NCBI GenBank assembly: GCA_021731245.1
Contig: JAKFXT010000008.1
Location: 1,045 to 65,044, forward strand
Direction of reading: 5' to 3'
From: Patescibacteria group bacterium
GTDB lineage: Bacteria; Patescibacteriota; Minisyncoccia; Phycocordibacterales; JAKFXT01
Length of the DNA: 64,000 nucleotides
This document shows positions 6,930 through 37,190 of this stretch, piece after piece. Every line of letters starts with the position of its first letter. Positions within the stretch are counted from its first letter, which is position 1. Position numbers and translations under genes: made by a program. Below the pieces are notes generated by a model. It saw only the letters and a list, made by a program, of their open reading frames with translations. It made no database searches and was not told the origin of the DNA.

Positions 6930-7030
6930 TCCGCCCTCAAACTGCACACATAATTTTCTGTTTAAAATTTGCTCCGCTCGGCGCGTCCGCCTTCGCAAGG
7001 CAGTTTGAGGGCGGATGGGGGTATTAGATG
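6930..7030 (+). repeat. structured intergenic element, family copy A (outer 16-bp stem tccgccctcaaactgc/gcagtttgagggcgga around core CACACATAATTTTCTGTTTAAAATTTGCTCCGCTCGG...CGCAAGG)
   Basis: read directly; homologous copies at ~10338, ~19316, ~26657 and on - strand at ~37083. Confidence 0.5.
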
Positions 7031-7068
7031 GAAGAAAAAACAGAAAAAATGAGGTAGAATAGCGGATT

Positions 7069-7656
7069 ATGAAGTTTACAGTTATAGGCCTGGGCAATCC
7101 TGGGGGAGAATATAAGGATACTCGGCACAACACGGGAGCTTTAATTGTAGAATATCTGCAATCAGCGTTAGATTCTTCTCCTTGGAAGGAAAATAAAAAG
7201 GCAAAAGCACTAGAGAGTGTTGGAAAAATTGGGAAACACACCGTTACACTCATATTGCCGGAACAATTTATGAATAATAATGGTAAGGTTCTTCCTTCAT
7301 TAATAAAAAGTAAGGCGGATGCAGGGCGACTTCTGGTAATTTATGATGAATTGGATTTACCTATTGGGAAAATGAAAATGTCTTTCGGGCGCTCTTCTGG
7401 TGGACACCGAGGACTCGATTCTGTGATGCGAGCAATAAAGACAAAAGATTTTATGCGTATTCGTGTTGGTGTTTCGCCTGAAAGTAAAGGTGTAGCTAAA
7501 AAACCAAAGGGGGAAGACGCTGTGATTAAATTTATTTTGGGGAAATTTAAACCTGATGAACTAGAAATTCTCAAAAAAGAAAAACTAAAAATCAAAAAGG
7601 CATTAGAAAATATTGTAGAGAACGGATTTGAGAGAGCAATGGGGGAGTTTAATTAA
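7069..7656 (+). CDS. pth: peptidyl-tRNA hydrolase
   Basis: N-terminal LGNPG...Y..TRHN motif characteristic of Pth. Confidence 0.9.
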   Translation: MKFTVIGLGNPGGEYKDTRHNTGALIVEYLQSALDSSPWKENKKAKALESVGKIGKHTVTLILPEQFMNNNGKVLPSLIKSKADAGRLLVIYDELDLPIGKMKMSFGRSSGGHRGLDSVMRAIKTKDFMRIRVGVSPESKGVAKKPKGEDAVIKFILGKFKPDELEILKKEKLKIKKALENIVENGFERAMGEFN

Positions 7657-7686
7657 AAAATCCGGCTTTGAACCGGATTTTTTAAT

Positions 7687-8838
7687 TTACTTTACGTAAG
7701 TAAGGGCCATCTTTTGATCTTTTGGATCAAATAGATTTATTTTGAATTTGTAGGTTTTACCAAGTTCAAGTGTTGAGCGAAGTTTGGCTTCATTGTTTTC
7801 AAATTCTGAAATATGAACCAATCCTGCAATTCCTTCTTCAATTGAAGCGAGAGCCCCGTGTTTATTGTGTTTGATTATGACACCCTCAACAGTCATATCT
7901 TTTTGATACTTCTTGTCAGCTTCTTTCCAAGGGTTTTCTTTGAGTGCCTTAACAGAAAGAGACACCTTACCATCTTTTATTTCAATAACTTTTACTTTTA
8001 TGTGATCTCCTACCTTGAAGATTGAGCGTGGGTCTTCCACTAAGCCCCAATCAATTTCTGAAATGTGTACCAACCCTTCAAGTCCTTCTTCTATTTTTAC
8101 GAATACTCCGAAGTCCACAATTCCTGTAACAGTTCCTTCCATAAGGTCTCCGACTCCATATTTACTAACAATTTCCTGTTTTTCTTTTTGGTCGTGGCTC
8201 TTTTCAGAGAAAATAAGTTTTCCTTCTTTAGGAGTTGCGCCAATTATAGTAACGGAGAGAACTTGTCCAACAAGTTTTTTAAGTTCCTCATATATTTTAT
8301 CTTTGTCCCCGTCATCTATTCTTGGATAGTGTTCAGCTTTAAGTTGTGAAGCTGGAAGAAATCCTACAATTCCTTGCCACTCCATTATAAGACCACCTTT
8401 ATTTGCATCTTTAACAGGTAAATCCAAAAGCTTCTTCTCTTTAATGGCGCTATCTGCCTCACTCCAAATCAAAGCTTGGCGAGCCTCTTTAAGAGAAAGT
8501 TCTAGATAACCCTCTTTATTATTTGTATCTACTACTTTAGCGGCAACATTGTCGCCAATATTTATGCGACGAATAACATCGCGCGCATTTAGAAATTCTT
8601 TGCCGTAAATTATTCCAGTACCGTATGGGTGCAAGTCAATATAAACAGATGCTTTTTCAACTGCTATGACCGGACCTTCTACAATATCTCCTGCTTGTGG
8701 GGGATTCTTCTCATCTTGGAGAAGTTTCGCCATCAAGCTGTTCTTTTTAGATTTTTTTTCTTCTTCGTGGTTTTCGTTTTCTTCTACTTCTAAATCCTTT
8801 CCTTTTTTTATTAAAGTTTCAGAGTCTGACATATTCAA
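7687..8838 (-). CDS. rpsA: 30S ribosomal protein S1 (multi-S1-domain RNA-binding protein)
   Basis: four repeated S1/OB-fold modules (G..V.G.V..v...G.fV.l) with acidic N-terminal extension. Confidence 0.75.
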   Translation of the reverse strand: MNMSDSETLIKKGKDLEVEENENHEEEKKSKKNSLMAKLLQDEKNPPQAGDIVEGPVIAVEKASVYIDLHPYGTGIIYGKEFLNARDVIRRINIGDNVAAKVVDTNNKEGYLELSLKEARQALIWSEADSAIKEKKLLDLPVKDANKGGLIMEWQGIVGFLPASQLKAEHYPRIDDGDKDKIYEELKKLVGQVLSVTIIGATPKEGKLIFSEKSHDQKEKQEIVSKYGVGDLMEGTVTGIVDFGVFVKIEEGLEGLVHISEIDWGLVEDPRSIFKVGDHIKVKVIEIKDGKVSLSVKALKENPWKEADKKYQKDMTVEGVIIKHNKHGALASIEEGIAGLVHISEFENNEAKLRSTLELGKTYKFKINLFDPKDQKMALTYVK

Positions 8839-9063
8839 TTGTATTCGTGGAGGGCCCCTTTAAATTTAAGACACTAATGACTTAAATTTTAGAGAAGTTT
8901 ACTTTCCGCGATTGGCTAATAATCAATTCCTTAAAACAAAAAAGCTCATGGAGCTTTTCATTAAATTAGCACAATATTTGGGAAATGACAAACCCCGCTA
9001 AGAGCGGGGGTCTGGCCGGCACACAGTCGAGCTGTGCGCCGGCCAGATTTTGCCGGGCTTTTA

Positions 9064-9244
9064 TCATTCAGGATTTATTCTTCTTATTACCTGGACGTGG
9101 CGGCTTGGGCCGCTTTGCCCGCTTTTTACTGCTTTCTTCTTGGACGATTTCTTTTTACCTGACGCTTTTCTACTTCTTTTTTTCGCCGCCGCCGGCGCCG
9201 ATGGTGGAACCGCGGAAGCCGGTTTTCGCTTTTTTCTTCGCCAT
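9064..9244 (-). CDS. Lys/Ala/Gly-rich basic small ORF, GC-rich, apparently frameshifted at an A7 run
   Basis: AAGGAG RBS 7 nt before ATG 9244 gives MAKKKAKTGFRGSTIGAGGGEKKK-stop; +1 frame continues KASGKKKSSKKKAVKSG... to 9064. Confidence 0.3.
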
Positions 9245-9433
9245 ATCAATCTCCTTAGAGGTGGTTGCGAAATAGCATCAAGACCGAAATGGTCCAAAAG
9301 ATGAACTGATGCCATTTAAAATTCTATACCCGTTTTAATTTTATGTAAATTATTTTCTGTGTTTAAAATAAAAAAACCAACCAATCGCGAAGATTGAAGT
9401 CGGTATGTTTCTGAAAGAACTTTAGAGACTTCG

Positions 9434-9481
9434 GCCCGCCACTGGACCCTTAGATCCGGACCCTTAGATCCAGTGGCGGGC
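9434..9481. other. 12-bp perfect hairpin (gcccgccactgg/ccagtggcgggc) whose loop is a tandem 13-nt direct repeat (acccttagatccgg x2)
   Basis: read directly in the 358-nt divergent intergenic region 9316-9673. Confidence 0.4.
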
Positions 9482-9673
9482 AGGCCATCATAATTCCGAG
9501 GATTCCGCGGATCCTTACGAAATTTTAAAATAGAACAAAAGACAGCAAAGCGTTCTTATCACCCAAGCCTAGCAACCCACCAGTGCCTGAAGCGGGAGCC
9601 GCTCTTAAAGTTATATTACTTAATTTAAAAGTCAATTTTTACAAAAACCTTTCGAAGAGTTAAACTGTGCTTC

Positions 9674-10312
9674 ATGGTTATCACTTATTTCGGACATGAA
9701 TTTTTTAAAGTGCAATTTGGAGACATAACTCTTGCTTTTAATCCTATTTCTAAAGACTCCAAATTAAAGACTTCTCGCTTTGGGGCAGATATCGCTCTTA
9801 TTTCAATGAGGAATGATGATATGAATGGTGAGGACCAAGTCTCTTTTGGAGAAAGAAACGCTTTTGTTATAAAAGGACCAGGTGAATATGAAGTGAAAGA
9901 GGTGTTTGTAAAAGGATTTCTCTCTAATCCAAAAGAAAAATCTGGACCACTAAATACAATTTATACAGTGAATCTTGAGGGAATGAACATTTGTTTTTTG
10001 GGGGCCCTCGCTAACAAAGACTTAGGCTCTGATGTGAAAGAAGTCTTGGGTGATATAGATATTCTTTTTGTGCCAATTGGCGGAGGTGACGTTCTTACTT
10101 CATCTGAAGGATATAAGCTCGCAGTTTCGCTTGGCGCAAGATTAATTATTCCAATGCATTATGGAGAAGGAAAAACTGGAGCGGATAATTTAAAAACTTT
10201 TCTAAAAGAAGGCGGTAAGGGAAATGTATCGCCTGAAGAAAAATTAACTCTAAAGAAAAAAGATTTGGAAGGCAAAGAAGGAGAAATTGCTGCTCTTAGT
10301 TCCAATGCGTAA
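9674..10312 (+). CDS. MBL-fold (UPF0173-like) hydrolase-like protein, metal ligands apparently degenerate
   Basis: ITYFGHEFF N-terminus and PMHYGE C-terminal motif resemble UPF0173 metallo-beta-lactamase fold proteins; HxHxDH not intact. Confidence 0.4.
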   Translation: MVITYFGHEFFKVQFGDITLAFNPISKDSKLKTSRFGADIALISMRNDDMNGEDQVSFGERNAFVIKGPGEYEVKEVFVKGFLSNPKEKSGPLNTIYTVNLEGMNICFLGALANKDLGSDVKEVLGDIDILFVPIGGGDVLTSSEGYKLAVSLGARLIIPMHYGEGKTGADNLKTFLKEGGKGNVSPEEKLTLKKKDLEGKEGEIAALSSNA

Positions 10313-10337
10313 AGGTTTTTAATAAAAAAGTTTTTTT

Positions 10338-10428
10338 GTTTGCGTTTGAATTACACGTATAATTTTCTGCTGAAAATTTACTCTGCTCGGCTCGCCAGCT
10401 TGTGCAAGGTAATACAAATGCAAACGTG
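10338..10428 (+). repeat. structured intergenic element, family copy B
   Basis: CACGTATAATTTTCTGCTGAAAATTTACTCTGCTCGGCTCGCC...TGCAAGG ~80% identical to copy A over ~58 nt; own outer stem ttgcgtttgaat/atacaaatgcaa. Confidence 0.45.
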
Positions 10429-10430
10429 GA

Positions 10431-10727
10431 GTGTTAAGATACAATACAAATATGAGTTGGCTGTTTAATTACATACACAGATTACAGCAGTTACCTTTGG
10501 ATGAGAAAAAAAGGAAAGCTCGTGTAATTGCGGGCGTACTAACTTTTATTGTTTTTATTTTTTGGCTTTCAACTTTGGCCCTTTCCAACGATAGGAGTGT
10601 CACAAGTGGAGTAAATATAGATATAACTCCATTAAAAAACATAAAATCTGCAACAGGTGACATTGTAAACAGCTTAACTAATTTGAAAAATAGTTTTAAT
10701 AAAATGGGGACTACAACTCTGGAGTAG
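10431..10727 (+). CDS. small hypothetical membrane protein (likely starts at ATG 10452)
   Basis: one predicted TM helix; two hairpins follow the stop. Confidence 0.3.
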   Translation: MLRYNTNMSWLFNYIHRLQQLPLDEKKRKARVIAGVLTFIVFIFWLSTLALSNDRSVTSGVNIDITPLKNIKSATGDIVNSLTNLKNSFNKMGTTTLE

Positions 10728-10817
10728 TGAGAGACTCCAAAGTGGCTAACTAGAGCCACTTTGAGGCCGTATTTCCTCTTCATTTTTTAAATTAAACATG
10801 CTAAAATAGGAGGAAAT

Positions 10818-13292
10818 ATGGCGAAAAAGCAGGAAGATTTAAAATCTGAAAAACCAGAAAAAGACGAAGAACGCGGAATAGTTATCCGCGATATTTCTGA
10901 TGAAATGCGAAAGTCTTACTTGGACTACGCAATGTCTGTTATCACATCGCGCGCCCTTCCTGATATTCGTGATGGACTGAAGCCTGTGCATCGCAGAATT
11001 CTTTTTACAATGCATGAAATGGGGCTCGTTGCATCCGCCAAATTAAGAAAGTCCGCTGCGGTAGTGGGAGATGTAATGGGAAAGTATCACCCGCACGGCG
11101 ACTCTGCTATTTATGAGTCTATGGTCAAAATGGCACAAGATTTTACTTTTAGATATCCATTGGTGATTGGACAAGGAAACTTCGGCTCAATTGATGGAGA
11201 TAATGCCGCTGCTATGCGTTATACGGAAGCAAAAATGTCTAAGCTTTCCGCAGAGCTCCTTCGTGATTTGGAAAAAGAAACAGTAGACTTTCGTCTCAAT
11301 TATGACTCCACAAGAAAAGAGCCAAGTGTTTTTCCATCCGCTGTACCGAATCTTTTATTAAATGGAACATTGGGAATTGCAGTTGGTATGGCAACAAATA
11401 TTCCACCGCACAATCTAAAAGAAGTTGTGGAGGCGACCATACATTTAATAGAAAATAAAGAAGCCTCAACTGAAGACCTACTAGAATTTGTTAAAGGCCC
11501 AGATTTCCCAACGGGAGGCATTGCTTACAATCAGACAGATATTTCTCACGCTTATATCAATGGTCGTGGGGGAGTTGTCGTGCGAGGTGTTGCAGACATT
11601 GTGGAGCAAAAAGGAGGGCAATTCCAAATCATTATTACTTCCATTCCATATCGCGTTAATAAATCTGATTTGATAGTTTCTATCGCGGACTTGGTGCGTG
11701 ACAAAAAATTGGAAGGAATAAAAGGAATCCGCGATGAGTCCACAAGAGATATTCGTGTGGTTATTGATTTGAAAAATGGAGTACAACCACAAAAGGTTTT
11801 GAATTTTATATACAAGCACACACAACTTGAAGAAGCTTTCCATTACAACAACGTAGCTTTGGTAAACGGTATTCCGCAGACGCTTTCTCTAAAGGCGATG
11901 CTTCAGGAGTTTATTACCCACAGACAAGAAGTAGTGCGACGCCGAAGTGAATTTGATTTAAGAAAAGCTAAAGACAGAGAACACATTTTGCTCGGTCTTA
12001 AGAAGGCGTTGGACCATATAGATGAAATAGTAAAACTGATAAGAAAGTCTAAGGATGTAGAAACTGCAAAGCTTGGACTCATGAAAGAGTTTAAGTTTTC
12101 TGATCGCCAAGCAGTAGCTATTTTGGAAATGCGTTTGCAGAAATTGGCCGGACTTGAAAGACAGAAAGTAGAAGACGAACTTAAAGAAGTAAAAGCTCTA
12201 ATAGAATTTCTTGAAGACATTTTAAAGAGTGATAAGAAAATGCTTGGAATTATAAAAAAGGAATTACAAGAAATCTCCGAAAAGTATGGTGATGAAAGAA
12301 AAACAAAAATAGTTAAAGGAGGTATCAAGACTTTCTCAATGGAAGATTTGGTGCCGGATGAAGAAACCGTCCTTGTTTATACAGCAGGTGGTTACATAAA
12401 GAGAACAAATCCCGATGAATATAGAAAACAAAAGCGCGGAGGTGTGGGTGTGGTTGATTTAGATACTAAAGAAGAAGATTTTATTACGCAATTTGTAACG
12501 ACGTCCACTCACAGTGACCTACTTTTCTTTACTGATAAGGGAAAGGTTTATCAATTGAAAATGTATGAAGTTCCAGAAGGACGTCGTGCAACGCGCGGTA
12601 AGTCCATTATGAATTTCCTTTCTATTTCATCGGATGAAAAAATAACTTCAATTCTTCCAATAACTAAAGATAATAAGAAGACAAAGTTTTCATTAATGAT
12701 GATTACTAAAGGTGGAGTGGGAAAGAAAGTGGCAGCAGAAAGCTTCCATGATGTGCGCCGAAGCGGAATTATTGCAATACGTCTAGATCAAGGTGACTCT
12801 CTAATTTCTGCAATGCTTGTTGAAAAAGGAGACAGTGTAATTCTAGGAACTAATGATGGTCAGTCTATTCGCTTTGATGAGGCGGACATTCGTGAGATGG
12901 GTCGCGCCGCAGGTGGAGTGCGTGCTATTAAACTCGATAAGAAAGATTTTATTGTAGCTTCCGACGTGGTGCGGAAAGAAACTGCCAAAGACGCAGAACT
13001 TCTTGTAATAAGTTCCAATGGCTACGGCAAGAGAACCTCACTTGATGAATATAAAATACAAAATAGAGGTGGGTCTGGAATAAAGACTATGAAAGTTACT
13101 CCCAAAACAGGAGTTGTTATAACGGGTGCGGTTGTTTGCGGAGAAGAAGCCGAGGTTGTAGCGATTTCTAAGAAAAGCCAAGTTATAAGAATTGATGTAA
13201 AAGAAATTCCCTCACTTAGTCGTGCAACTCAAGGTGTGCGCGTGATGCGTATGCGTGACGGGGATTCCATCGCGTCTCTTATTTGTCTCTAA
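10818..13292 (+). CDS. gyrA: DNA gyrase subunit A
   Basis: [11 protein letters not shown] (active-site Tyr), [17 protein letters not shown] region, C-terminal beta-pinwheel repeats. Confidence 0.95.
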
Positions 13293-13398
13293 AATAAATA
13301 GCACTGTTAATTGTTAGTTGGGGCTTGTGGGTTATAATTTACTTGTGTCATTTGCATATCCTAAATCAAATATTTCCAACCTTTTAATAGGAGAAGAA

Positions 13399-13872
13399 AT
13401 GAAAGTGTTAGACGTTGGTGCCGGAAGTGGTGCCTATACTTTGGCGGTGGCCGAACTTGCAAAGAACGGCAAGGTTTATGCAGTGGATGTACAGAAAGAA
13501 CTATTGGCTAAAATAAAAGCAGAAGGAGCCAAAAGGCATTTACATAATATAGAAGGAATTTGGGCTGATATAGAAAAGCCCCACGCTACAAAACTGGCTG
13601 ACAAAATAATAGATGTCGGAATCGTTTCTAATATTTTATTTCAAGTAGAACACAAAGAAGGCCTAGCAAAGGAGGTTTCTCGTTTGATTAGACCAAGAGG
13701 TAAACTAATGGTAATTGATTGGAGCGATTCTTTTGGCGGACTTGGCCCACAGGCGAAAGACGTTTTTAATGCTAATCGCACCAAAGGATTGTTTGAAACG
13801 GTTGGATTCAAATCAGTTAAAGAGTTTGATGCGGGCGACCACCACTACGGTATAATATTTGAACGAACATAA
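13399..13872 (+). CDS. class I SAM-dependent methyltransferase
   Basis: motif I VLDVGAGSGAYT; RBS GGAGAAG before ATG 13399. Confidence 0.6.
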   Translation: MKVLDVGAGSGAYTLAVAELAKNGKVYAVDVQKELLAKIKAEGAKRHLHNIEGIWADIEKPHATKLADKIIDVGIVSNILFQVEHKEGLAKEVSRLIRPRGKLMVIDWSDSFGGLGPQAKDVFNANRTKGLFETVGFKSVKEFDAGDHHYGIIFERT

Positions 13873-13876
13873 ATCT

Positions 13877-15184: not shown

Positions 15185-15216
15185 ATGGTAAATACTTAAT
15201 ATTCGTGAAATAATTT

Positions 15217-15669
15217 ATGAACATGTTTAAAAAAATCCTTGCTACAGCAATACCCTTTATTTTTTCCTTGAGTCTATTATTACCAGTAGTTTCTACTGAA
15301 GTTTTTGCACAACAGGACAGGTCTGTAAATACAAATTCTTCAAATCAGGATAGAGGAGTTAATACAAATAGTCAGAATCAAACTTGTACAGGTAATGATT
15401 GTACTCTAACTAATCCTTTCACCATTAGCACTGTCACACAATTATTAAATGCCATTCTGGATATACTTATAAAAATTGGTTGGATATTAGCATTCTTCTT
15501 TCTTATTTATGCTGGATTTTTATTTGTTACTGCCGCAGGAAGCGAGGAACAAATAAATAAAGCCAAAGATACATTTAAATGGACGGTTATAGGTTCCGCC
15601 ATTGTTCTTGGCGCTAAAGCCCTAGCTATTATCATTGAAACTACTGTGAAAGAAGTGGTAGGAAGATAA
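15217..15669 (+). CDS. TrbC/VirB2-like small pilin-family protein, paralog 1 (N-terminal Q/N-rich repeats, CTGNDC)
   Basis: signal peptide, then two-helix core with LFVTAAGSEE...K..FKWT motif shared with the next three ORFs. Confidence 0.5.
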   Translation: MNMFKKILATAIPFIFSLSLLLPVVSTEVFAQQDRSVNTNSSNQDRGVNTNSQNQTCTGNDCTLTNPFTISTVTQLLNAILDILIKIGWILAFFFLIYAGFLFVTAAGSEEQINKAKDTFKWTVIGSAIVLGAKALAIIIETTVKEVVGR

Positions 15670-15672
15670 AAA

Positions 15673-16044: not shown

Positions 16045-16152
16045 TGAGAGAACTTCTTGTTAGCGGTTTCTATCCACAGGACCCCTTGTTTAAGCTGGGA
16101 AATACTTGTAAAATGTAAGTATTTAAAAGGTTATTAGTTATTTATTTAGTAA

Positions 16153-18671: not shown

Positions 18672-19062
18672 CCCGAACTAAATCGTATCTACCCCTAATA
18701 ATAGCATATTTTATAGTAAAAGTCAAGTGCTAGAAACACAAAAATACGGCTTTATTTAGCCGTATTTTTGTGTAATTTTATTTGCGGTGAACTTGTGGTC
18801 ACAAATATTTCCTCGTCGTCACTAGAAAATTTCGCGACCCCAGCTCGCGATTTCATTTGCTAATGAAATATCGCTCCGCTTCTCACAAACTAAAAACCTC
18901 CCGCAGGGGAGATTTTTTACGTTTGTGAGCAACAATAATTTGTTCGCCGTCGCTCACAAATTTTCCTTACCCGGCCTCACTTATTTTACTTGCTAGTAAA
19001 ATATAGTTCCGGCTCTCACAAGCATGAAAAAATCCCAAGCAGTTGGGATTTGTTTCATCTTG

Positions 19063-19144
19063 TGAGCAAGAGAGGACTCGAACCTCCACCCCTTGCGGGA
19101 CCAGTTCCTAAGACTGGCGCGTATACCAATTCCGCCACTTGCCC
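19063..19144 (-). tRNA. tRNA-Leu (anticodon TAG), long variable arm
   Basis: cloverleaf folded by hand: acceptor GGGCAAG/CTTGCTC, anticodon loop CTTAGGA, T-arm GGTTCGAGTCC. Confidence 0.8.
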
Positions 19145-19218: not shown

Positions 19219-19291
19219 CCGCCCATAGCTCAGTTGGTAGAGCAGATCCCTCTTAAGGATAAGGTCGTAGGTTCGAATCCTACTGGGCGGA
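19219..19291 (+). tRNA. tRNA-Lys (anticodon CTT)
   Basis: acceptor CCGCCCA/TGGGCGG, D-arm GCTCAGTTGGTAGAGC, anticodon loop CTCTTAA, T-arm GTAGGTTCGAATCCTAC. Confidence 0.75.
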
Positions 19292-19454
19292 CTATTTTAT
19301 TTTCGGGTGGGGAATCGGTCACAAATAATTTTCTGCTGAAAATTTTCGCGACCCGACAAATAGTGCTTAGGCACTGTTTGTCCGCGCCGTCGCGCTACAA
19401 CTTTCGATTCCCGCCAGCCAAAAATTTATACCCACACAAGGCAGGTATAAATTT

Positions 19455-19540
19455 TTGGTGCTCAGGGCGGGAATCGAACCCGCATGCCTTGCGGCCAGAG
19501 ATTTTAAGTCTCTTACGTCTACCAATTTCGTCACCCGAGC
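19455..19540 (-). tRNA. tRNA-Leu (anticodon TAA), CCA encoded
   Basis: acceptor GCTCGGG, anticodon stem-loop AGAGA-CTTAAAA-TCTCT, long variable arm, T-arm GCGGGTTCGATTCCCGC, 3' ACCA. Confidence 0.8.
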
Positions 19541-19561
19541 GCTAACAAAAGTAAAACTAAG

Positions 19562-19589
19562 TTTTACTTGAGGCGTAGGGCGGAATCGA
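19562..19589 (-). repeat. duplicated 3' fragment of tRNA-Cys (28 nt identical to 19702-19729: last ~19 nt of the tRNA plus 9 nt flank)
   Basis: read directly: ttttacttgaggcgtagggcggaatcga occurs twice ~140 nt apart. Confidence 0.6.
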
Positions 19590-19710
19590 GTCACAAATAA
19601 TTTGTTCGCCGTCGCTCACAAATTTTTGCGACCCCGTCTCGCGATTTATTTTACTAAATAAATCATCACTCCGACCGTTCGCTTCCTAAGTAAAATATAC
19701 ATTTTACTTG

Positions 19711-19782
19711 AGGCGTAGGGCGGAATCGAACCGCCGTATAAGAGTTTTGCAGACTCTCGCCTTACCACTTGGCCACTACGCC
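19711..19782 (-). tRNA. tRNA-Cys (anticodon GCA)
   Basis: acceptor GGCGTAG/CTACGCC, anticodon stem-loop AGAGT-CTGCAAA-ACTCT, T-arm GGCGGTTCGATTCCGCC. Confidence 0.8.
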
Positions 19783-26605: not shown

Positions 26606-26610
26606 TTAAA

Positions 26611-26640: not shown

Positions 26641-26656
26641 TTTTATCTGGTGCGGA

Positions 26657-26700
26657 CACGAATAAATTTCCTGACGGAAATTTTTTGCGATCCCCGGCTC
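26657..26700 (+). repeat. structured element family, core copy D (palindrome AAATTTCC-tgac-GGAAATTT then TTTTGCGATCCCCGGCTCG)
   Basis: matches core of copies A-C but hairpin arms carry compensatory changes. Confidence 0.4.
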
Positions 26701-26797
26701 GATATTTTTGCCTTTGCTTTACGCAAAACAAAAATATATCTGCGCCCACGCACAAGTACGAAAAAATCCCAAGAAGTTGGGATTTTATTTCGTCTAG

Positions 26798-26881
26798 TGC
26801 GTCGGGCAGGATTCGAACCTGCGTAGCCCATTGGGCGACAGATTTACAGTCTGTTGCGATTGACCGCTCCGCCACCGACGC
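26798..26881 (-). tRNA. tRNA-Tyr (anticodon GTA), long variable arm
   Basis: acceptor GCGTCGG/CCGACGC, anticodon stem-loop ACAGA-CTGTAAA-TCTGT, T-arm GCAGGTTCGAATCCTGC. Confidence 0.75.
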
Positions 26882-28648: not shown

Positions 28649-28770
28649 GTCTTTCCCCCGAAATTGTTTCTACATATAAAGAACTACCCCTGTATCCGGA
28701 ATTTCGTTTCGCTCCGGAATTTTTCAAATATACTCCTAACCAAATTAATGTAAACCCCCTCTATGCACTT

Positions 28771-30531: not shown

Positions 30532-30533
30532 GC

Positions 30534-31913
30534 TTATTGCCCACCTATATCAAGTGGTGTTGATAGGGTGGGGGCATTTACTGTTATATTCGCACTCATT
30601 CCAATGGCATTTCTTTCTCCCTTTCTTGTTACTGCTATAAGTCCTACACCTTGCCCCGATTCTGAAATTTGGTCACCCAATTTGGCTACAAATATCCCAG
30701 GCCCACTGATGTTTCCTACGAATCCAATTACTTGCCAAGCGACAAGCTCGGTGACATCTACTTTTTTACCATCTCTCATTACATAAGCTCTGAATTTTAT
30801 AGTACTTCCTTCCTCTACTATAAGTCGGTCACTTGTTTCAATTGTTACCTTGTCGTTAACAGTAACCTCAAGAGTCCTAACTACGGTTTCAGTTTCTGTA
30901 GTTCTTACAGTCTCTGTTTTTATTTCAGTTGTTTCCTTGCTTTCAGTTTTCGTTTCGTCTCTTTCGTAAATAATGTCTTTTTCTTCACCAGTTAATCTTT
31001 CTATTGTTTTTTTCACATCCAATCTTTTACCTTCCAAGAACGCCTTTCTCTTTTCTTCAGTAAGTTCAATAAGTTTTTCTTTTGATTCAGCTTTTTTATC
31101 TTGAAGTCTTGTTTCAATGTCCTTAACTTCGGCATCTACTTCTTTGTGCTTTTCTTTAACTTGTTTTACCCAACTATCTTCTACAATTAGATTTGGTACA
31201 TCAGCAATTTTGTTTGTGAGGAATGCTTTTCTAGGATTTTCTACCGTTCCCGTTTCTGTTGTTGTAGAGGTTTGCTCTTTATTTATATTATTTACGTCTA
31301 CATTATTTATTTCTACATATTTTTTCTCCTCAATTATTATTTCTGCATCAGCTATTTTCTCCTTTGTTTCGGGGTCTAGTGGGGAAACAGCTACTTTGTG
31401 TTCAGAAGTATTTACCCAACTTGTAGTGCCTTTGAAGCCCATACCGAAAGCCGTGCCACGAACTGTGGCCACTGTGTTACTGGTCTTTACCTCCCATTCG
31501 GACTCTGGTGTTGCCAAAGATATAACTTTAGACCAAACACGTCCTACTGTGAGAGTTATTTTTATCAAAATACTTTTGTTACCATCATTTACCTCAATTT
31601 GTGGAATGGTAACTGCAGTTTCTTTATCCATACTCAATATTGAGCCGTCAGGGAAGTGAATTATCGCAGAACTATTTTTGCCAGTTTCAAGAGAAGCTCC
31701 ACTTTCTATAACGTCGCCACTTTTAAGTTGTCTAGATTGTCCTGGGAGCTTAAGAAATAGTGTGCCACGCTCTACTTCTACCCATGCCGTTTTTATAATA
31801 TTACCCTCTACTTTTGCGGGGCTATTATTTTCCGAATTATTATTTTTTAAAGCAAAAAAAGCTCCTCCACCTAGTATTAAAACAGCAATTCCTCCAAGAA
31901 TTAAGTTTTTCAT
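30534..31913 (-). CDS. FecR-domain protein with coiled-coil region and C-terminal Ig-like (Big_2-like) domain
   Basis: TM anchor then FecR-like beta motif (GDVIESGASLETGKNSSAIIHFPDGSILSM), E/K-rich helix, Ig-like C-terminus; directly upstream of CHASE2 cyclase. Confidence 0.55.
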   Translation of the reverse strand: MKNLILGGIAVLILGGGAFFALKNNNSENNSPAKVEGNIIKTAWVEVERGTLFLKLPGQSRQLKSGDVIESGASLETGKNSSAIIHFPDGSILSMDKETAVTIPQIEVNDGNKSILIKITLTVGRVWSKVISLATPESEWEVKTSNTVATVRGTAFGMGFKGTTSWVNTSEHKVAVSPLDPETKEKIADAEIIIEEKKYVEINNVDVNNINKEQTSTTTETGTVENPRKAFLTNKIADVPNLIVEDSWVKQVKEKHKEVDAEVKDIETRLQDKKAESKEKLIELTEEKRKAFLEGKRLDVKKTIERLTGEEKDIIYERDETKTESKETTEIKTETVRTTETETVVRTLEVTVNDKVTIETSDRLIVEEGSTIKFRAYVMRDGKKVDVTELVAWQVIGFVGNISGPGIFVAKLGDQISESGQGVGLIAVTRKGERNAIGMSANITVNAPTLSTPLDIGGQ

Positions 31914-32037
31914 GAATATTATCCTAGCATATGTAACTTCTGTTATACAAAGCGTAACGTCTTTGACTTATTTGTTTTGTAGAAGTAATGTTTTTCCAGA
32001 GCAGTATAAACCAACAAAGGAGCTTGCGATGATGACC

Positions 32038-32403
32038 AAGGTTGTGATTGTTGCGCAAGGAGATCCGCAGAATAAAGAAGCCGACTATTGGCAAATCGCG
32101 CGAAACCTACGCGAGTTGATAGACTCGGTGGATGTCGGCAAAGGTGCACATGAAAGGACTTTCAATGTGCAAATTGTCGGCTCTGAGAAGGATGCTTTAC
32201 TTGAACTTTTGAGCGAGGGCTGCTGGAATGGATGCCTCGTTTTCGTTTCCTCCTACTTCGTTCAACAGGCGGAGATGATTGCCAAGAAGCTCTATCCCAG
32301 GCACAAGGTGCTGGTTTACACTGTCGGCCTTCACCAGGGCTCAGAGCCCCTGCTGATTTCACGGGGTATGCTGGTTCCGGAGAATATCCGCGCTTTTTTC
32401 TGA
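32038..32403 (+). CDS. hypothetical protein in a GC-rich island (ORF-track N-terminal extension from 31678 rejected)
   Basis: RBS AAAGGAG before ATG 32038; TTGACT-17-TAATGT promoter-like at 31963-31991; GC3-rich. Confidence 0.4.
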   Translation, partial: KVVIVAQGDPQNKEADYWQIARNLRELIDSVDVGKGAHERTFNVQIVGSEKDALLELLSEGCWNGCLVFVSSYFVQQAEMIAKKLYPRHKVLVYTVGLHQGSEPLLISRGMLVPENIRAFF

Positions 32404-32430
32404 AGCACACCTATCTTGGAGACGGAAAAT

Positions 32431-32473
32431 AACCGCAGGCACACTCGTGCGCCTGCGGTTGAATTTTTATTTT
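32431..32473 (+). terminator. rho-independent terminator
   Basis: 10-bp stem aaccgcaggc/gcctgcggtt then TTTTTATTTT. Confidence 0.55.
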
Positions 32474-32539
32474 AATTTGCCTAAACACACTATTTATAGT
32501 AGTTTGTATAGGTTTTAATAAACCGAACTAAATTCATAT

Positions 32540-32698
32540 ATGTCTCAAACTAGATTAATCAAATTGGCCTGTGGCACCTGCAAAAGGGTGAACTATTGGA
32601 GCTCAAAAAATAAGAAAAAAGTAGAGCGAAAAATCGAGCTTAAAAAGTATTGCAACTGGTGTAGGAAGAATACGAAACATAAAGAATCTAAGAAGTAG
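32540..32698 (+). CDS. rpmG: 50S ribosomal protein L33 (52 aa, below ORF-track cutoff)
   Basis: hand translation MSQTRLIKLACGTCKRVNYWSSKNKKKVERKIELKKYCNWCRKNTKHKESKK: zinc-ribbon C..C...C..C and L33 consensus; tRNA-Trp follows as in many bacteria. Confidence 0.8.
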   Translation: MSQTRLIKLACGTCKRVNYWSSKNKKKVERKIELKKYCNWCRKNTKHKESKK

Positions 32699-32799
32699 TT
32701 TTCAGTTGTCAGCTTTTAGCTTACAGGTTAAAACTCTTGAGAAAGAACTCTTTTCTCGCTACACTAGCAACTGACAGCTAGCACCTAAAAGCTGTTTCA

Positions 32800-32873
32800 G
32801 GGCCTATAGTTCAGAGGTAGAATTTCTCTCTCCAAAAGAGAAGACCCGGGTTCGATTCCTGGTGGGCCCGCCA
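32800..32873 (+). tRNA. tRNA-Trp (anticodon CCA), CCA encoded
   Basis: acceptor GGGCCTA/TGGGCCC, anticodon stem-loop TCTCT-CTCCAAA-AGAGA, T-arm CCGGGTTCGATTCCTGG. Confidence 0.85.
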
Positions 32874-33058
32874 AACACAGAAAAGATGATACACATCATG
32901 TTTTCTGGTTTGGCGGGAGACGGAGTGATGTTTTGTCATCAGACAAAACCACGAGTCAGGGTCGTGGAATTTTGCGAGAGACGACGAGCAAAATATCCCT
33001 GACCGCCATGCGGGTAATAAAAATGTGAACGAATTCTAATGATGTTAAAATAATAAGA
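32869..33058 (+). other. structured non-coding region (at least four hairpins) immediately 3' of tRNA-Trp; candidate ncRNA or integration scar
   Basis: hairpins gccaaac.cagaaaa/ttttctg.gtttggc, gttttgtc/gacaaaac, ccacg/cgtgg, gtcaggg...ccctgac read directly. Confidence 0.3.
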
Positions 33059-33589
33059 ATGAATTTACTAAAGAATAAAACAATAATAGCAGCGATAATA
33101 ACAGGAATTCTGGGTTTAATAGCTGTTGGGTTAAATATTTATTTTCAAAAACCGACGACTCAGCAAAATCATTCTGGGCCCGGCGATAATGTAGCTAGAG
33201 ATAAAAATTTAAATGTTAACATTCAGCCCGTATCTCAAGATAGATATTTAAATTCTGAGCAGAAATCTTGTATCTTAAAGCAAATTTCTAAATATAATAC
33301 CCAAGATGTATCTATTGAATTGGTAGGATCTGTTAAGCAAATTTCTAATCAAACCGGAGCTGGAATATTTGTTGAACCACCGGATAATGAAACTATAAAT
33401 TACGTAAAGCAGATTGTTAATTTTCTAAAAGAAAATAATTATAAAATTGATGGTCCATATAACGTCGTTTCCTCGTACGATTCTAATGAACCCTTATTTG
33501 AAGGATTGCTAATAAAACAAGATAATGGTGAAGAATCAGTAAAAATCATAGTTGGCAGAAATGATGGTAAGAGTTTTTTGTGTAATTAA
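33059..33589 (+). CDS. hypothetical membrane-anchored protein
   Basis: single N-terminal TM, no recognisable motif. Confidence 0.3.
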   Translation: MNLLKNKTIIAAIITGILGLIAVGLNIYFQKPTTQQNHSGPGDNVARDKNLNVNIQPVSQDRYLNSEQKSCILKQISKYNTQDVSIELVGSVKQISNQTGAGIFVEPPDNETINYVKQIVNFLKENNYKIDGPYNVVSSYDSNEPLFEGLLIKQDNGEESVKIIVGRNDGKSFLCN

Positions 33590-33591
33590 TT

Positions 33592-34479
33592 CTAAACCCA
33601 CCCCACGCTCTTATCCCTCCTAAACCAAGTTCTTTGACGCTTGGCATAATCCCAATTTCCTTTTTCTATTTTTTCTATTAATTCTTTTTTATTTATTTCA
33701 CCCTGTAAGTACTCTGCCAAATATCTATATTCAAGCCCCAACTCTTTCATACGTTTAAAACTTAAACCCCCTTTTCTAAGTCTTTTCGCTTCCGCAATCA
33801 TCCCTGACCTAATTCGCGCGAATAGGCGAATATGAATTCTTTTCTTAAGTTCTGCGTCAGGGAAGTCTAGTCCAATTTTTGTTATTTTGAACTCCTCTGC
33901 TAATTTAGGGTTTTTTATTCCCACGCTGGCTTTGCCGGCGCGGGCTATTTCAATTGCACGAATTAGGCGCACAGGATTTTTGGCATCAATTATTTTGGCT
34001 CGCTTTGGGTTTAATTTTTTTAATATTGTAAAAAGCTCACTTGCAGATTTCTTTGCAAGTTTTTTGCGAAGAGCTTTATTTGCCGGAACATCAGATAATT
34101 CTATTTCTCCAAGTAAAGCAGAAATATAAAAGCCAGTACCACCACAAATTATAGGAGTTCTGCCGTTTCGTACGATATATCGTATGATTTTTGTTCCATC
34201 TTTCACGTAGCGCGCCGCGCTGTAGGCGCGGCGCGGGTCTGCAACACTAAGCAAGTGATGTGGAACCCCCCTCATTTCTTTTTTAGTGATTTTACCTGTC
34301 GCTATATCTAATCCTTTATAAACTTGCCTTGAGTCAGCTGAAATAATTTCACCCCCAACTTTTTTGGCGAGTTTTACGGCATAGTCACTTTTGCCTGTAG
34401 CTGTGGGGCCAACAATGACAAAAATCTCCTTTTTGTGTGTTTTTTGAGAGTTCATCTTAGTATGATAAAATTTTGTCAT
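33592..34479 (-). CDS. miaA: tRNA dimethylallyltransferase
   Basis: P-loop GPTATGKS, ISADSRQVYKGLDIATGK, GVPHHLL motifs. Confidence 0.9.
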   Translation of the reverse strand: MTKFYHTKMNSQKTHKKEIFVIVGPTATGKSDYAVKLAKKVGGEIISADSRQVYKGLDIATGKITKKEMRGVPHHLLSVADPRRAYSAARYVKDGTKIIRYIVRNGRTPIICGGTGFYISALLGEIELSDVPANKALRKKLAKKSASELFTILKKLNPKRAKIIDAKNPVRLIRAIEIARAGKASVGIKNPKLAEEFKITKIGLDFPDAELKKRIHIRLFARIRSGMIAEAKRLRKGGLSFKRMKELGLEYRYLAEYLQGEINKKELIEKIEKGNWDYAKRQRTWFRRDKSVGWV

Positions 34480-34503
34480 TATAGTTAATCAAATTAAATC
34501 ATT

Positions 34504-35124
34504 ATGGCTAAAAATCAACCAAAAGAAAGTGTTATGGCAAAACCGTGTTCTACCCCAATTAAAATAGGGGAGACAATTCCGGAAATAAATTTTGAAATTT
34601 ATGACCCAATTAAAGACCAAGATAGGAAAGCAAAATTGTCAGAATTTCGTGGCAAATGGCTCGTCCTAATGTTTTATCCAGCGGACTTCACATTTGTTTG
34701 CCCGACAGAATTAGAAGAGATGGCGGGTTTGTATGAAGATTTTAAAAAGGAAGGAGCAGAAGTATTAAGCGTCTCAACGGACACCGTCTTCGTGCACAAA
34801 GCATGGCATGACCACTCTGATGCTATTAAGAAAATAAAATATCCTATGGCAGCAGACCCAACAGGTGCATTGAGTAAGGCCTTCGGTACCTACATTGATG
34901 AAGAGGGACTCTCACTTCGCGGAACATTCATTATTGATCCAAAAGGAGAATTAAAAGGTATAGAAATAACTCACAATGATATTGGTAGAAAAGCAGCAGA
35001 GACTCTTAGAAAAATGCGCGCAGCAAAGTTTGTCGCAACAAACCCAGGCAAGGTGTGTCCTGCCTCATGGGAACCAGGAGATAAAACTCTTAAACCAGGA
35101 ATGGACCTAGTGGGAAAGATATAA
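34504..35124 (+). CDS. peroxiredoxin (AhpC/TSA family)
   Basis: peroxidatic Cys motif FTFVCPTEL, thioredoxin fold length. Confidence 0.85.
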   Translation: MAKNQPKESVMAKPCSTPIKIGETIPEINFEIYDPIKDQDRKAKLSEFRGKWLVLMFYPADFTFVCPTELEEMAGLYEDFKKEGAEVLSVSTDTVFVHKAWHDHSDAIKKIKYPMAADPTGALSKAFGTYIDEEGLSLRGTFIIDPKGELKGIEITHNDIGRKAAETLRKMRAAKFVATNPGKVCPASWEPGDKTLKPGMDLVGKI

Positions 35125-35332
35125 ATAAAATAAACGAAGCCCGACACAAGTCGGGCTTTAAGTTTCTTCTCCTTTCTTTTGTGTGTAGCGTGGCGGATAG
35201 AGTCGCTCTAATTCTTCAGGGGTCAAATCTTTTTTTGGCTTGGCGCGATTTATTCTTGGTGGCAACAGTTTTGCCATAATAAATTCTGCCAATCGAGCTT
35301 TTATTCCTGGAGGCTTTTTATTTTTCCAAGCG

Positions 35333-35665
35333 CTATCCATTAGGACCTCTCTTTTTAGTCGGATCGGGACACTCGCCGAGTTCCACGATTTTATTCGGCC
35401 ACCAGCAGACCCTAATTTCGCTTCTGCAGGGTAATTCTTCATCTACTACGCATTCGGGTGTCTCACTTCTCGTTTTGTATATTGCGTAGACGTTGGAAGT
35501 GACTTTGAAATCTCTTTTTTCTCCTCTGTATTCCAGTTCAAGAATAAATCTGGACCCGCTCTCTTTTTTTCCTGTTATTGCTACCCAGACGGTTTCCTGG
35601 TGCCCCCCACAGCCAGAAATTGTGGAGGCCGTAAATGCTATGAATAATACAAAGATGCGAAGCAT
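35333..35665 (-). CDS. small hypothetical lipoprotein (lipobox ISGC), GC-enriched
   Basis: signal peptide + lipobox; Cys-rich C-terminus; followed by a ~60-aa basic ORF (MDSAWKNKK...) in another frame. Confidence 0.4.
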   Translation of the reverse strand: MLRIFVLFIAFTASTISGCGGHQETVWVAITGKKESGSRFILELEYRGEKRDFKVTSNVYAIYKTRSETPECVVDEELPCRSEIRVCWWPNKIVELGECPDPTKKRGPNG

Positions 35666-35698
35666 TGTGCCCCCATTAGAAGTTAAAGAACATTACTT

Positions 35699-35779
35699 GT
35701 GCCGGAGGTGAGACTTGAACTCACACCTCTCGCGAGACACGATTTTGAGTCGTGCGCGGCTACCATTACGCCACTCCGG
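35699..35779 (-). tRNA. tRNA-Leu (anticodon CAA), long variable arm
   Basis: acceptor GCCGGAG/CTCCGGC, anticodon stem-loop CACGA-CTCAAAA-TCGTG, T-arm GTGAGTTCAAGTCTCAC. Confidence 0.8.
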
Positions 35780-35855
35780 CAATTAATCACTAAATTACAA
35801 CAATAAACTTATAAACACAATTTGATTTTACACCACCCGTGATAAAATAACTTCA

Positions 35856-36884
35856 ATGTCACAATATTTAGGAGATTCTATTTTTTGGATTGAAATTGAT
35901 AAGGTAGATCCAAATCCATATCAACCCCGTCGAGAATTTGACGAGGTACGTCTTAAAGATTTATCCGAGTCAATCCGCCAATATGGAATCTTGCAACCAA
36001 TTGTTGTTACTAGAAAAGAAGTTGTAAAAGAAGATGGCGGACTACAAAGTCGTTATGAATTAATCGCAGGAGAAAGAAGACTTCGTGCTTCAAAACTTGC
36101 AGGACTTAAAGACATACCCGCAATCATTCGCGCGAACGCAGACGATGCGAGAGTAAAACTAGAACTTGCAATAATTGAGAATTTACAAAGAGAAGATTTA
36201 AACGCGGTGGATAGAGCCCGCGCATTTGAAAGACTGACAAGTGAATTCGGTTTTAAGGCAGGACAAATTGCACAGAAAATAAATAGAAGTCGTGAATATG
36301 TTTCTAATACAATGAGAATTTTGGCATTACCTCCTGAAATGCTGGAAGCTGTTTCAATGGGGAAAATAAGCGAGGGTCACACAAGACCACTTCTCATGCT
36401 TGCAGATAGACCGCAAGAACAGCAGGTGCTTTTTAAAGAAATAATGTATAAGAAATTATCTGTTCGCGAAACAGAAAGTTTGGCTCGACGTGTCGCCTTT
36501 GATAGAGTCCGCAAGAAAGAATATATAGTAGATCCAGAAATAGCAGATTTAGAACAGCAATTTGTAGAATCCCTTGGTACTAGGGTAAAAATAGAAAAAA
36601 GAGATAATGGAGGACAACTTATAATAGATTTTTTTACAGCGGAAGATTTGAAAAATATTTACAACGCTATTAAGACAACTGAAGTAAAAACAGTGGACCA
36701 TATGATGAATAAAGTAATGGGGAGTGTAGATGGTGCGGGGATTGTAGCTGTGCCAAGTTTTACTCCAGGAACTGAAATTCCTGAAACAGAAAATACACAA
36801 AACGAAGTTATAGATGACCGATCAAAAGAAGAAAAAGATTCCACGGACGAAGATCTATACTCTGTAAAGAATTTTTCCATATAA
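35856..36884 (+). CDS. parB: chromosome partitioning protein ParB/Spo0J
   Basis: ParB box ELIAGERRLRASKLAGL, HTH region, C-terminal extension; no parA in window. Confidence 0.85.
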   Translation: MSQYLGDSIFWIEIDKVDPNPYQPRREFDEVRLKDLSESIRQYGILQPIVVTRKEVVKEDGGLQSRYELIAGERRLRASKLAGLKDIPAIIRANADDARVKLELAIIENLQREDLNAVDRARAFERLTSEFGFKAGQIAQKINRSREYVSNTMRILALPPEMLEAVSMGKISEGHTRPLLMLADRPQEQQVLFKEIMYKKLSVRETESLARRVAFDRVRKKEYIVDPEIADLEQQFVESLGTRVKIEKRDNGGQLIIDFFTAEDLKNIYNAIKTTEVKTVDHMMNKVMGSVDGAGIVAVPSFTPGTEIPETENTQNEVIDDRSKEEKDSTDEDLYSVKNFSI

Positions 36885-37082
36885 AAATCAAAAGGGCCGG
36901 TAGAAATTCACCGGCCCCTGGGAATGAAACGAGCTTGCCTAAGGCTCGCCCAGCATTGGTCCCTTTAAATATCCATTGATAGACGCACCCACGGAGGGAA
37001 CGTTTCTCTTTGGAACCCAATGTTGTTATAAGGCACTACAAAACTGCTACTTTCTATTATAGCACCTAGTTTAATTTTGTCA

Positions 37083-37190
37083 AGTTTTTCCTATACCTCC
37101 CAATTTACCCTCGAACTGCCTTGCGCAGTCTGACTGGGACGAGCAGAACAATTCGCCAGGAGGCGAATATGTGTGCAGTTTGGGGGTAAA
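37083..37190 (-). repeat. structured element family copy E (minus strand): CAAACTGCACACATA - hairpin attcgcc/ggcgaat - ...CGCAAGGCAGTTCGAGGG...TGGGAGGTAT
   Basis: ~100 nt homologous to copy A including GGGRGGTAT tail; central hairpin arms compensatorily changed. Confidence 0.4.

Follow-up and report, generated by a model that had tools for sequence, protein, structure and literature searches.

Hairpin elements downstream of tRNA genes

We analysed a stretch of 64,000 nucleotides (hereafter, the window; positions are counted from its first base) on contig JAKFXT010000008.1 of a Patescibacteria group bacterium (GCA_021731245.1), in which short non-coding elements with a conserved hairpin core, here called core X, recur next to tRNA genes. 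The GyrA protein of the window is 80% identical to that of the best species representative and was placed in Patescibacteria (Paceibacteria/Parcubacteria). Genes beside the elements include lepB/hisS, pth, parB, relA, miaA and one for a metallo-beta-lactamase-fold protein; the window also encodes DprA.

A repeat search and a covariance model built from the hairpin revealed nine copies in the window (Table 1). The initial annotation, made from the sequence alone, had listed five (A to E), all of which are present where it placed them; the additional ones are F, G and H in minus sense and W in plus sense. Six copies (C, D, F, G, H and W) follow genes for tRNA-Cys, tRNA-Leu(taa), tRNA-Leu(tag) (two units), tRNA-Tyr and tRNA-Trp on the same strand, at a distance of 40-220 nt, and five of the eight tRNA genes in the window have a linked copy. 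The other three (A, B and E) are orphans. This link, together with direct and inverted copies of the tRNA 3' end in the flanks of the elements, is the main feature of the family and had been missed.

The dispersal of the family was confirmed. The shared 20-mer ATAATTTTCTGCTGAAAATT occurs three times at ≤2 mismatches (0.05 expected by chance, and the observed count was reached in 0 of 100 shuffles) and four times at ≤3 mismatches, a self-overlapping minus-strand match included; the motif TTGCTCYGCTCGGC, taken alone, was not above chance. Two copies that had been described as truncated are complete: copy C ("partial") shows an outer stem of its own, GGCGGGAATCG/CGATTCCCC, along with an additional hairpin, and copy D ("core only") has a long first hairpin. 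The outer stems reported for copies A, B and E all fold, with 17 bp (not 16), 17 bp including two mismatches, and 18 bp, respectively. The three variants of the inner hairpin exist as well, with the corrections that copy A has only 6 bp (AATTTT/AAAATT, 6-nt loop) and that the loop of copy E is tcct.

When the covariance model of the copies was used for scanning, as the initial annotation had suggested, it recovered further copies in the window and in related genomes. Core X was found in many of 80 gyrA-centred loci from related genomes, and groundwater, lake and sediment metagenomes contributed at least 120 contigs that carry it. The metagenome contigs were selected by the pattern of H2, the second hairpin of the core, and counts from them cover the matches listed. 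Loci outside the window are referred to by L numbers.

Table 1 Copies of the element in the window, their settings and their parts (H1 and H2, hairpins of the core; P1, outer stem; A, antisense arm; S1 and S2, tRNA tail copies; T1, terminator-like hairpin)
Copy	Setting	Span (strand)	Parts	Model score
A	orphan	6929..7016 (-)	P1 arms 6929-6945 + 7000-7016 (17 bp, perfect); core 6946-6999 = H1 (GAA/GA loop, GACG tetraloop) then H2; conserved flank 7017-7029	45.5 bits
B	orphan	10338..10425 (-)	P1 arms 10338-10354 + 10409-10425; core 10355-10408	48.3 bits
F	second unit after tRNA-Leu(tag)	18784..18890 (-)	S2 18784-18797; H2 18798-18841; H1 18842-18880; A arm 18882-18890; flanked by terminator-like hairpins 18737-18772 and 18892-18918	53.6 bits
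G	first unit after tRNA-Leu(tag) (19062-19144)	18921..19051 (-)	S2 18921-18932 (TTGCTCACAAAC, copy of tRNA 3' end); H2 (degenerate) 18933-18972; H1 18974-19013; A arm 19012-19022; T1 19030-19051	only 15 bits, E 0.28
C	after tRNA-Leu(taa) (19456-19540)	19305..19456 (-)	S2 19305-19317; H2 19318-19354; extra hairpin 19355-19382; H1 19384-19395 (GCGC-GACG-GCGC); A arm 19405-19419 (antisense of tRNA T-loop + T-stem); T1 terminator 19420-19456	57.8 bits
H	after tRNA-Cys (19710-19782)	19550..19729 (-)	S1 + T1 hairpin 19702-19729 (inside/just past tRNA); H1 19636-19676; H2 19590-19635; S2 19562-19589 (exact 28-nt tRNA copy, T55 through trailer hairpin)	
D	after tRNA-Tyr (26797-26881)	26647..26786 (-)	S2 26647-26654; H2 26655-26695; long H1 26696-26746; A arm 26743-26756; T1 26763-26786	40.3 bits
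W	after tRNA-Trp (32800-32873)	32867..33014 (+)	hairpin incl. tRNA 3' end 32867-32917; H1 32919-32957; H2 32959-33004; S2 (CGCCA...) 33004-33014	36.2 bits
E	orphan, between convergent parB and relA/spoT	37102..37192 (+)	P1 arms 37102-37119 + 37175-37192 (18 bp, 2 G.U pairs on plus strand); core 37120-37174	44.2 bits

Copied tRNA tails and insertion of the units

One layout recurs at no fewer than 120 metagenome loci, in the order tRNA[1-55]-S1-T1-A-X-S2, followed by a second terminator region (T2). Directly after the last bases of core X (...GTGAC) comes S2, an exact copy of the adjoining tRNA that begins at the T-loop base C56; its identity run has a mode of 19-24 nt, which corresponds to C56 through the discriminator base plus 1-6 nt. 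The junction ...GTGAC|C56 was seen in about 50 tRNAs, and the tRNA bases preceding C56 are GGTT or AGTT in 49 of 55. Arm A, directly 5' of core X, is the antisense of the tail S and pairs with it to form P1, in runs of 6-17 bp. T1 is a terminator-like hairpin with a U tract that usually stands between the tRNA and A-X-S2, and the tRNA tail, T1 and A together often make up one perfect palindrome with arms of 35-45 bp. In a minority of units (class ii, including copies F, G, D and W of the window) only the last few tRNA bases and the trailer are duplicated.

The association with tRNA genes is broad. A same-strand tRNA gene lies ≤450 nt upstream in 110/149 H2 instances (among the matches listed), mostly at 40-300 nt, and nearly every tRNA isotype is represented. 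At L145 (9056-9620) an X unit follows the tmRNA gene, which adjoins smpB, and its S2 resembles the sequence from the T-loop to the 3' end, so tmRNA is a target too. A derivation of S2 from mature tRNA was considered and dropped, as CCA was carried in only ~4/55 cases, with a similar number of the reverse kind (not significant).

Trailer hairpins of tRNA genes are unusually long in these genomes (13-24 bp, perfect; window 19030-19051 and 26763-26786, also L006, L021, L069 and L162). Many have a CUGC (or GCAG) tetraloop and AA/UU closing pairs, with the last tRNA bases often in the stem. Spacers of ~30-40 nt between tRNA-Lys and tRNA-Leu genes at L003 (11161-11205) and L042 consist mostly of a lone or degenerate H2 ending in GTGAC, and look like eroded units inside a tRNA operon.

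Comparison of close relatives revealed the block as an insertion that is present in some and absent in others. The tRNA-Leu(tag) genes of L001 (empty) and L002 (occupied) are 100% identical; the tail, trailer and terminator of L001 align to S2-T2 beyond core X in L002, and ~212 nt are extra between. The T1 of L002 is foreign and unrelated to the resident terminator. A second comparison, at tRNA-Leu(taa), showed the same pattern, with L031 occupied and L033, L077 and L023 empty. In these cases a block of identity up to the tRNA 3' end is found, with an intact gene and a displaced 3' fragment.

The occupant of L031 has a different core. This second family, core Y, has the form GAA-GCCCGAUUGAG[hairpin]CAAUCGGGG-UACUG-[4-6 bp hairpin, UGUAA loop], then S2. 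It is also a three-way junction, is unrelated to core X and sits in the same slot between the antisense and sense copies of the tRNA tail. We found it at L004, L031, L035, L066, L069, L112, L113, L143 and L148, and at L002 after tRNA-Lys (19080-18840); L035 and L002 have further core variants. Two unrelated cores within one architecture point to a shared insertion process.

Whole units also occur in tandem arrays (L086, L103 and L136, with three units). At L126 an open reading frame (ORF) of 183 aa, an IGPS-like fragment, lies between two identical T1-A-X-S2 units. Copies at different tRNA genes are related: copy D (tRNA-Tyr) and copy G (tRNA-Leu) match at 91% over 35 nt in T1 and the adjacent stretch of A.

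The frequency of the units was estimated from the gyrA-centred loci, which were not chosen for the element. Among 124 tRNAs assessed there, 18 had core X and 12 had tail copies without it, so that about a quarter of the tRNA genes show such structure; 94/124 had neither core X nor an inverted or direct copy, and 106/124 were without core X.

The folded strand of core X

The folding strand is the reverse complement of the one used in the initial annotation, because G.U pairs on the sense strand become A.C mismatches on the other. For the same locus the covariance model gave 57.8 bits on the sense strand and 16.8 bits on the antisense strand, and the sense strand folds better in 7/8 window copies. 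Copy B is the only one in which the antisense strand folds slightly better; the folding z-scores of copy A are -6.3 (sense) and -4.4 (antisense), and that of copy E is -6.3.

Core X is a three-way junction of H1 and H2, closed by the outer stem P1. The base helix of H1 is G-N-C/G-N'-C, in which N:N' is a Watson-Crick pair in 54/61 cases, with all four pair types. The 5' side of its internal loop is GGA (43 cases) or GCA (9), the facing 3' side is GA in 61/61, and the inner stem ends in a GACG tetraloop (20/31 short forms) or a long AU-rich extension. H2 has 16 bp, with a GGUCGC/GUGACC base, three covarying pairs, a bulged A and a variable stem of 6-8 bp, and ends in an ANCA-type loop or a GACG mini-hairpin. 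Across 120 distinct sequences, 95.7% of the cells of H2 are paired, compared with 38-51% when the partners were slid by 1-3 columns, and 14/16 pairs have compensatory changes; no shuffle reached the observed values, and the covarying positions were free in the selection pattern. One pair is G.U in 17/17 copies from the window and its relatives and in 118/120 distinct sequences overall; another is G.U in 41, G-C in 54 and A-U in 11. The claim that the hairpin changes in sequence while its pairing is kept holds, and selection on a folded single strand is borne out by the covariation and the strand-specific G.U pairs. Cores are 80-90% identical across genomes. Orphan ("type 1") cores are without the GUCGC/GUGAC base of H2 and keep both hairpins and the GA/GA-type loop.

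Several familiar motifs were tried and rejected. CACRNATAAT is not a promoter, for it has no conserved -35 box and is on the wrong strand. GGA/GA and GUGAUGA do not make a kink-turn or box C/D motif, the bulge being 1 nt rather than 3 and the bases coming from the H1 stem. Hammerhead, twister and other ribozymes were excluded by the lack of their core motifs and of an Rfam match, and a degenerate tRNA pseudogene by the arm 5' of core X, which perfectly complements the T-stem, T-loop and acceptor 3' strand, with no D-arm or anticodon arm. The group I introns of Patescibacteria tRNA genes interrupt the anticodon loop, at 35/36, and greatly exceed the units in size; the same recent survey reported Patescibacteria to be without group II introns (PMC13011429).

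A conserved fold on the tRNA strand could also mean that read-through from the tRNA yields core X as a functional small RNA or as a cis-acting RNA module, with gain and loss by ordinary gene turnover. The A:S2 stem would then be a processing stalk (e.g., for RNase III or RNase P) or a mimic of the tRNA acceptor/T-arm, and S2 would be kept by selection. The shared orientation with the tRNA in the 110/149 listed matches, the G.U pairs that favour the transcribed strand, the conserved non-Watson-Crick motifs (GGA/GA loop, bulged A, GACG loop), the similarity of cores between genomes, the exact S2 beside diverged trailers, and the units of L003 and L135 in short tRNA-tRNA spacers without a terminator all agree with such a role. 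We nevertheless consider it unlikely. In most units a terminator-like hairpin with a U tract comes between the tRNA and A-X-S2, a separate promoter has no space, and 20-45 nt of the tRNA and its trailer have their complement in A, so that a transcript that reads through could pull the tRNA fold open. An insertion supplies the tRNA with a new tail and a terminator of foreign origin, the unrelated core Y in the same slot points to a shared insertion process, units form tandem arrays and flank an ORF, and Rfam has no match.

Two of the three identities offered in the initial annotation are not supported, on related grounds. An ordinary small-RNA gene does not fit the insertion-type presence and absence with a duplicated tRNA 3' end, the tandem arrays and the lack of room for a promoter; arm A, whose sequence follows from that of the tRNA, takes up the 5' side. 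A regulator-binding palindrome in a leader is at odds with the sense-strand position downstream of tRNA genes, usually past a terminator-like hairpin.

Orphan copies

In the orphans (A, B and E in the window; L011, L029, L056, L061 and L065 elsewhere) the core lies at the exact centre of a near-perfect palindrome. The arms, of 17-18 bp in the window and 20-36 bp elsewhere, have unrelated sequences, in contrast to the 80-90% identity of the cores between genomes. Flanks beyond the stem are also shared by the window orphans: on the sense strand, ..ACCYCC(C)A precedes it and a run of A follows.

Copy A lies in the spacer of the divergent genes pth and lepB, shortly before the conserved promoter of lepB, CTTGTGTCAA ... 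TAnnAT, and is therefore not in a leader. The same spacer has elements in the window, L056, L057, L030 and L045, which differ in their arms and even in their cores, and is empty in most relatives. Orthology of copy A with the L056 orphan, also upstream of lepB, was rejected since the spacers of other genomes contain different palindromes and cores; a permissive hot spot, rather than inheritance, is the better reading.

The promoter-like motif before lepB (CTTGTGTCAA, ~17 nt, TAnnAT; window 6860-6900) was seen in ~35 related loci of Paceibacteria. The TTG start (6888) of lepB falls inside the -35-like box, which makes a true start further downstream probable. In copy A, the 7 bp at the outer end of the stem (TCCGCCC/GGGCGGA) match the acceptor end of tRNA-Lys(CTT) (19219-19292, found by ARAGORN), which has an unusual C1-G72 first pair and the acceptor CCGCCCA/TGGGCGG.

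Perfect arms around near-identical cores raise the question of whether any dedicated mobility is needed. Template switching at the terminator and core X, by snap-back or tandem-inversion duplication, could have built the structures, core X being a stable hairpin spread by ordinary recombination. The order S1-T1-A-X-S2 has the topology of two successive snap-backs, the long perfect arms are wholly different between copies with near-identical cores, the pth-lepB spacer holds different palindromes in different genomes, and template switching is known to create long stems (PMC8794818). It would, however, predict variable ends, and the inner boundary of S2 is fixed at C56 in ~50 independent tRNAs. 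Moreover, the T1 of L002 was not copied from the resident terminator, cores X and Y are conserved foreign sequences that need a source, and the 94/124 tRNAs at the gyrA loci are free of any such feature. As a full explanation we regard template switching as distinctly unlikely.

Neighbouring genes and larger cargo

To look for an associated enzyme, we clustered 684 ORFs within 3 kb of the elements at 120 metagenome loci. No recurrent protein family was found beside the elements: the best family was present in 8/120 loci, and the top families were all housekeeping (PilM/N-like, L19, FtsH, RluD, ClpB, ComF, RelA, ParB and Ddl). The clustering detected no TnpA or TnpB near the elements. The units themselves, at 130-200 bp, carry no ORF and hence no integrase.

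At L119, L158 and L181, X-S2 with a tRNA-like S2 has no tRNA nearby and lies beside accessory genes, namely DNA methyltransferases (L119), DUF3800 and MerR (L158), and ResIII (L181), which hints at larger cargo.

Such copies also bear on whether the units are dead remnants, that is, the attR-side ends of kilobase islands or prophages that targeted the T-loop and then suffered internal deletion, with core X as an attP arm. A T-loop crossover with an identity block and a displaced 3' fragment is the classic mark of tRNA-integrating elements, and is what we observed here; the tRNA-less X-S2 copies beside accessory genes fit as well. We find this origin quite unlikely, given that more than 100 independent deletions would all have left the same unit of 130-200 bp. 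The H2 pattern had no copy in IMG/VR (two chance matches, both without the hairpin), no integrase was found in the loci examined by a crude motif scan, identical copies stand in tandem arrays, the covarying stems favour a folded strand over a row of protein-binding arm sites, and the antisense arm A is foreign to classical attP arms.

A model of tRNA-targeting cassettes

We read the elements as insertion cassettes, non-coding and non-autonomous, that are directed specifically at the 3' part of tRNA and tmRNA genes, and consider this reading about evenly balanced between right and wrong. On the tRNA strand a unit is S-T1-A-X and sits between T55 and C56. S replaces the tail from C56 up to the 3' end of the tRNA, which leaves the gene intact, and the tail that it displaced is found as S2 directly behind core X. 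A, X and S2 (or A, X and S, in a putative free circle) fold into one long hairpin capped by the forked core. The cargo between S and A is usually the terminator only, in one case an ORF, and possibly multi-gene islands.

A step by a recombinase acting on the folded strand is a more tentative part of the model. The folded single strand (A-X-S) may serve as the cis-acting insertion site, with its stem mimicking the target duplex and the crossover at the stem/core junction, GTGAC|C56. A circle S-T1-A-X, linearised at GTGAC|C56 and joined into the T-loop, would give the observed order; the circular or single-stranded intermediate is hypothetical. The enzyme would be encoded elsewhere, and either a tyrosine recombinase or an HUH nuclease could serve. 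The arms might be re-matched at a new tRNA by replication template switching at the two hairpins, as template switching creates and perfects long stems (PMC8794818). Homology-driven natural transformation could add to the spread; the tRNA gene would then anchor the incoming DNA, and S2 would offer a second, short stretch of homology.

Several points weigh against the cassette reading. No free circle or excision product was seen, and a crude motif scan of 2.1 Mb, a weak test, found no tyrosine-recombinase-like ORF. A jump to a new isotype would first give a chimeric and probably dead tRNA, and how this is avoided is only suggested above. Owing to the direct repeat, the insertion can be placed either at 55/56 or just past the tRNA. 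S2 is often exact where neighbouring trailers have diverged, which could mean selection on RNA. The metagenome loci were picked with a pattern that fixes GGGGTCGM and WWTAYNNGTGACC, and invariance at these positions is partly built in. Neither a flanking direct repeat nor tRNA-like arms are seen in the orphans (A, B, E, L011, L056 and others), which are the part that the insertion-cassette model explains least well.

Comparison with known elements

The proposed insertion logic matches that of integron attC sites, of the forked attP of phage CTX and of tRNA-integrating islands. Like the islands and prophages that target tRNA or tmRNA genes with tyrosine integrases, the units combine insertion in the T-loop, a replacement 3' end, a displaced 3' copy and tmRNA as a target. 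They differ in that they are 130-200 bp long, have no integrase, are usually gene-less and use essentially every isotype; they also carry an inverted copy of the target (a long hairpin with a three-way-junction cap) and form tandem arrays.

With integron attC sites and cassettes they share a site defined by structure, a variable stem, conserved unpaired or bulged bases, strand-specific folding, arrays of units, and cargo that is variable or absent. The R''/R' boxes (RYYYAAC/GTTRRRY) of attC are absent, however; the stem bases are tRNA-derived (CGAAT..., CAAGT...) or arbitrary, there is no attI/intI context, the stems copy the target tRNA, and docking is at a housekeeping RNA gene. That the units amount to a hitherto unrecognised, integron-like cassette system of Patescibacteria, with a T-loop dock, a forked hairpin of at least two core families (X and Y) read as a folded strand, self-repair, and cargo from none to defence/restriction-modification, is possible but doubtful.

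The forked single-stranded attP of phage CTX, which like other elements uses the host Xer recombinases, is likewise a forked hairpin whose stem mimics the target duplex, and it also occurs in tandem arrays. The order of inverted target-like copy, spacer and target at a CTX-type junction resembles ours, compared by architecture alone. The target here is a tRNA T-loop rather than dif, and there is no phage body.

The REP-like element of the initial annotation came closest of the three identities it offered. Like REP/REPIN, MITE, ERIC, Correia and RUP repeats, the units are short, non-coding, multi-copy, hairpin-forming and non-autonomous. As a strict REP/REPIN assignment it does not hold, as the units have no GTAG/CGTC tag and their core is asymmetric, with two different hairpins. 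In contrast to the small repeats in general, arms are not conserved between copies, insertion is at one fixed point, and what is duplicated is not a short target site but 19-24 nt of a specific gene segment. A MITE is excluded by arms that differ wholly between near-identical cores and by a direct repeat that is 19-24 nt of tRNA and is missing at orphans, and an IS200/IS605 palindrome-associated element by the long target duplication and the absence of TnpA/TnpB nearby. Tandem inversion duplications and template-switch palindromes share the direct-inverted-direct order, junction hairpins and perfect long arms, but lack a conserved foreign core at one junction and a boundary fixed at C56.

No Rfam family covers the element. 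At the gathering threshold, the only Rfam matches in the whole window are its eight tRNAs, and a permissive search of copy A and the tRNA cluster gave chance-level matches only. In the literature searched we found no tRNA-linked hairpin elements at the T-loop or 3' end in Patescibacteria. Nor did we find a description of the combination seen here, of gene-less units of 130-200 bp that bring their own tRNA tail and terminator, form a palindrome derived from the target and use all isotypes. The capping of this palindrome by a conserved three-way junction is part of that combination, while its single parts resemble known things. There is a real chance that the mechanism is new.

Other features of the window and related loci

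Between parB and copy E, positions 36885-37082 (minus strand) hold a near-consensus promoter (TTGACA 37082-37077, 16-nt spacer, TATAAT 37060-37055) and, ~130 nt further on, an intrinsic terminator, GGGGCCGGTGAATTTCTACCGGCCCTTTTGATTTTT (36918-36885). This ORF-less unit of ~150 nt matched no Rfam family at E up to 1. Just upstream of tRNA-Gln, two 39-nt copies (48704-48742 and 48997-49035; 92% identical) built on the perfect palindrome TATTCTGATATTCTGCAGAATATCAGAATA flank a small ORF of 88 aa (48747-49013). A promoter-like 39-nt sequence, TTGACAAATCTGTTTATTTAGTGTATTATT..., is duplicated at 42283-42321 and 42867-42905 (87% identical, 584 nt apart). At L145 (5225-8548), an FtsH homologue of 1108 aa has a large insertion past the Walker A region, which from its sequence looks like an intein with a homing-endonuclease-like segment.

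Implications for Patescibacteria

If the cassette reading is true, much selfish or semi-domesticated DNA is tolerated on the single-copy tRNA genes of the smallest known bacteria. The elements would enter without harm to the gene, as they carry a spare tail, and the hairpin would be a compact recombination site defined by its structure. The annotation of tRNAs and pseudo-tRNAs would then need adjusting, because partial 3' copies adjoin real genes. The loci are also a natural data set on the origin and persistence of long perfect palindromes. For Patescibacteria, the units would represent a new route for the movement of accessory genes.

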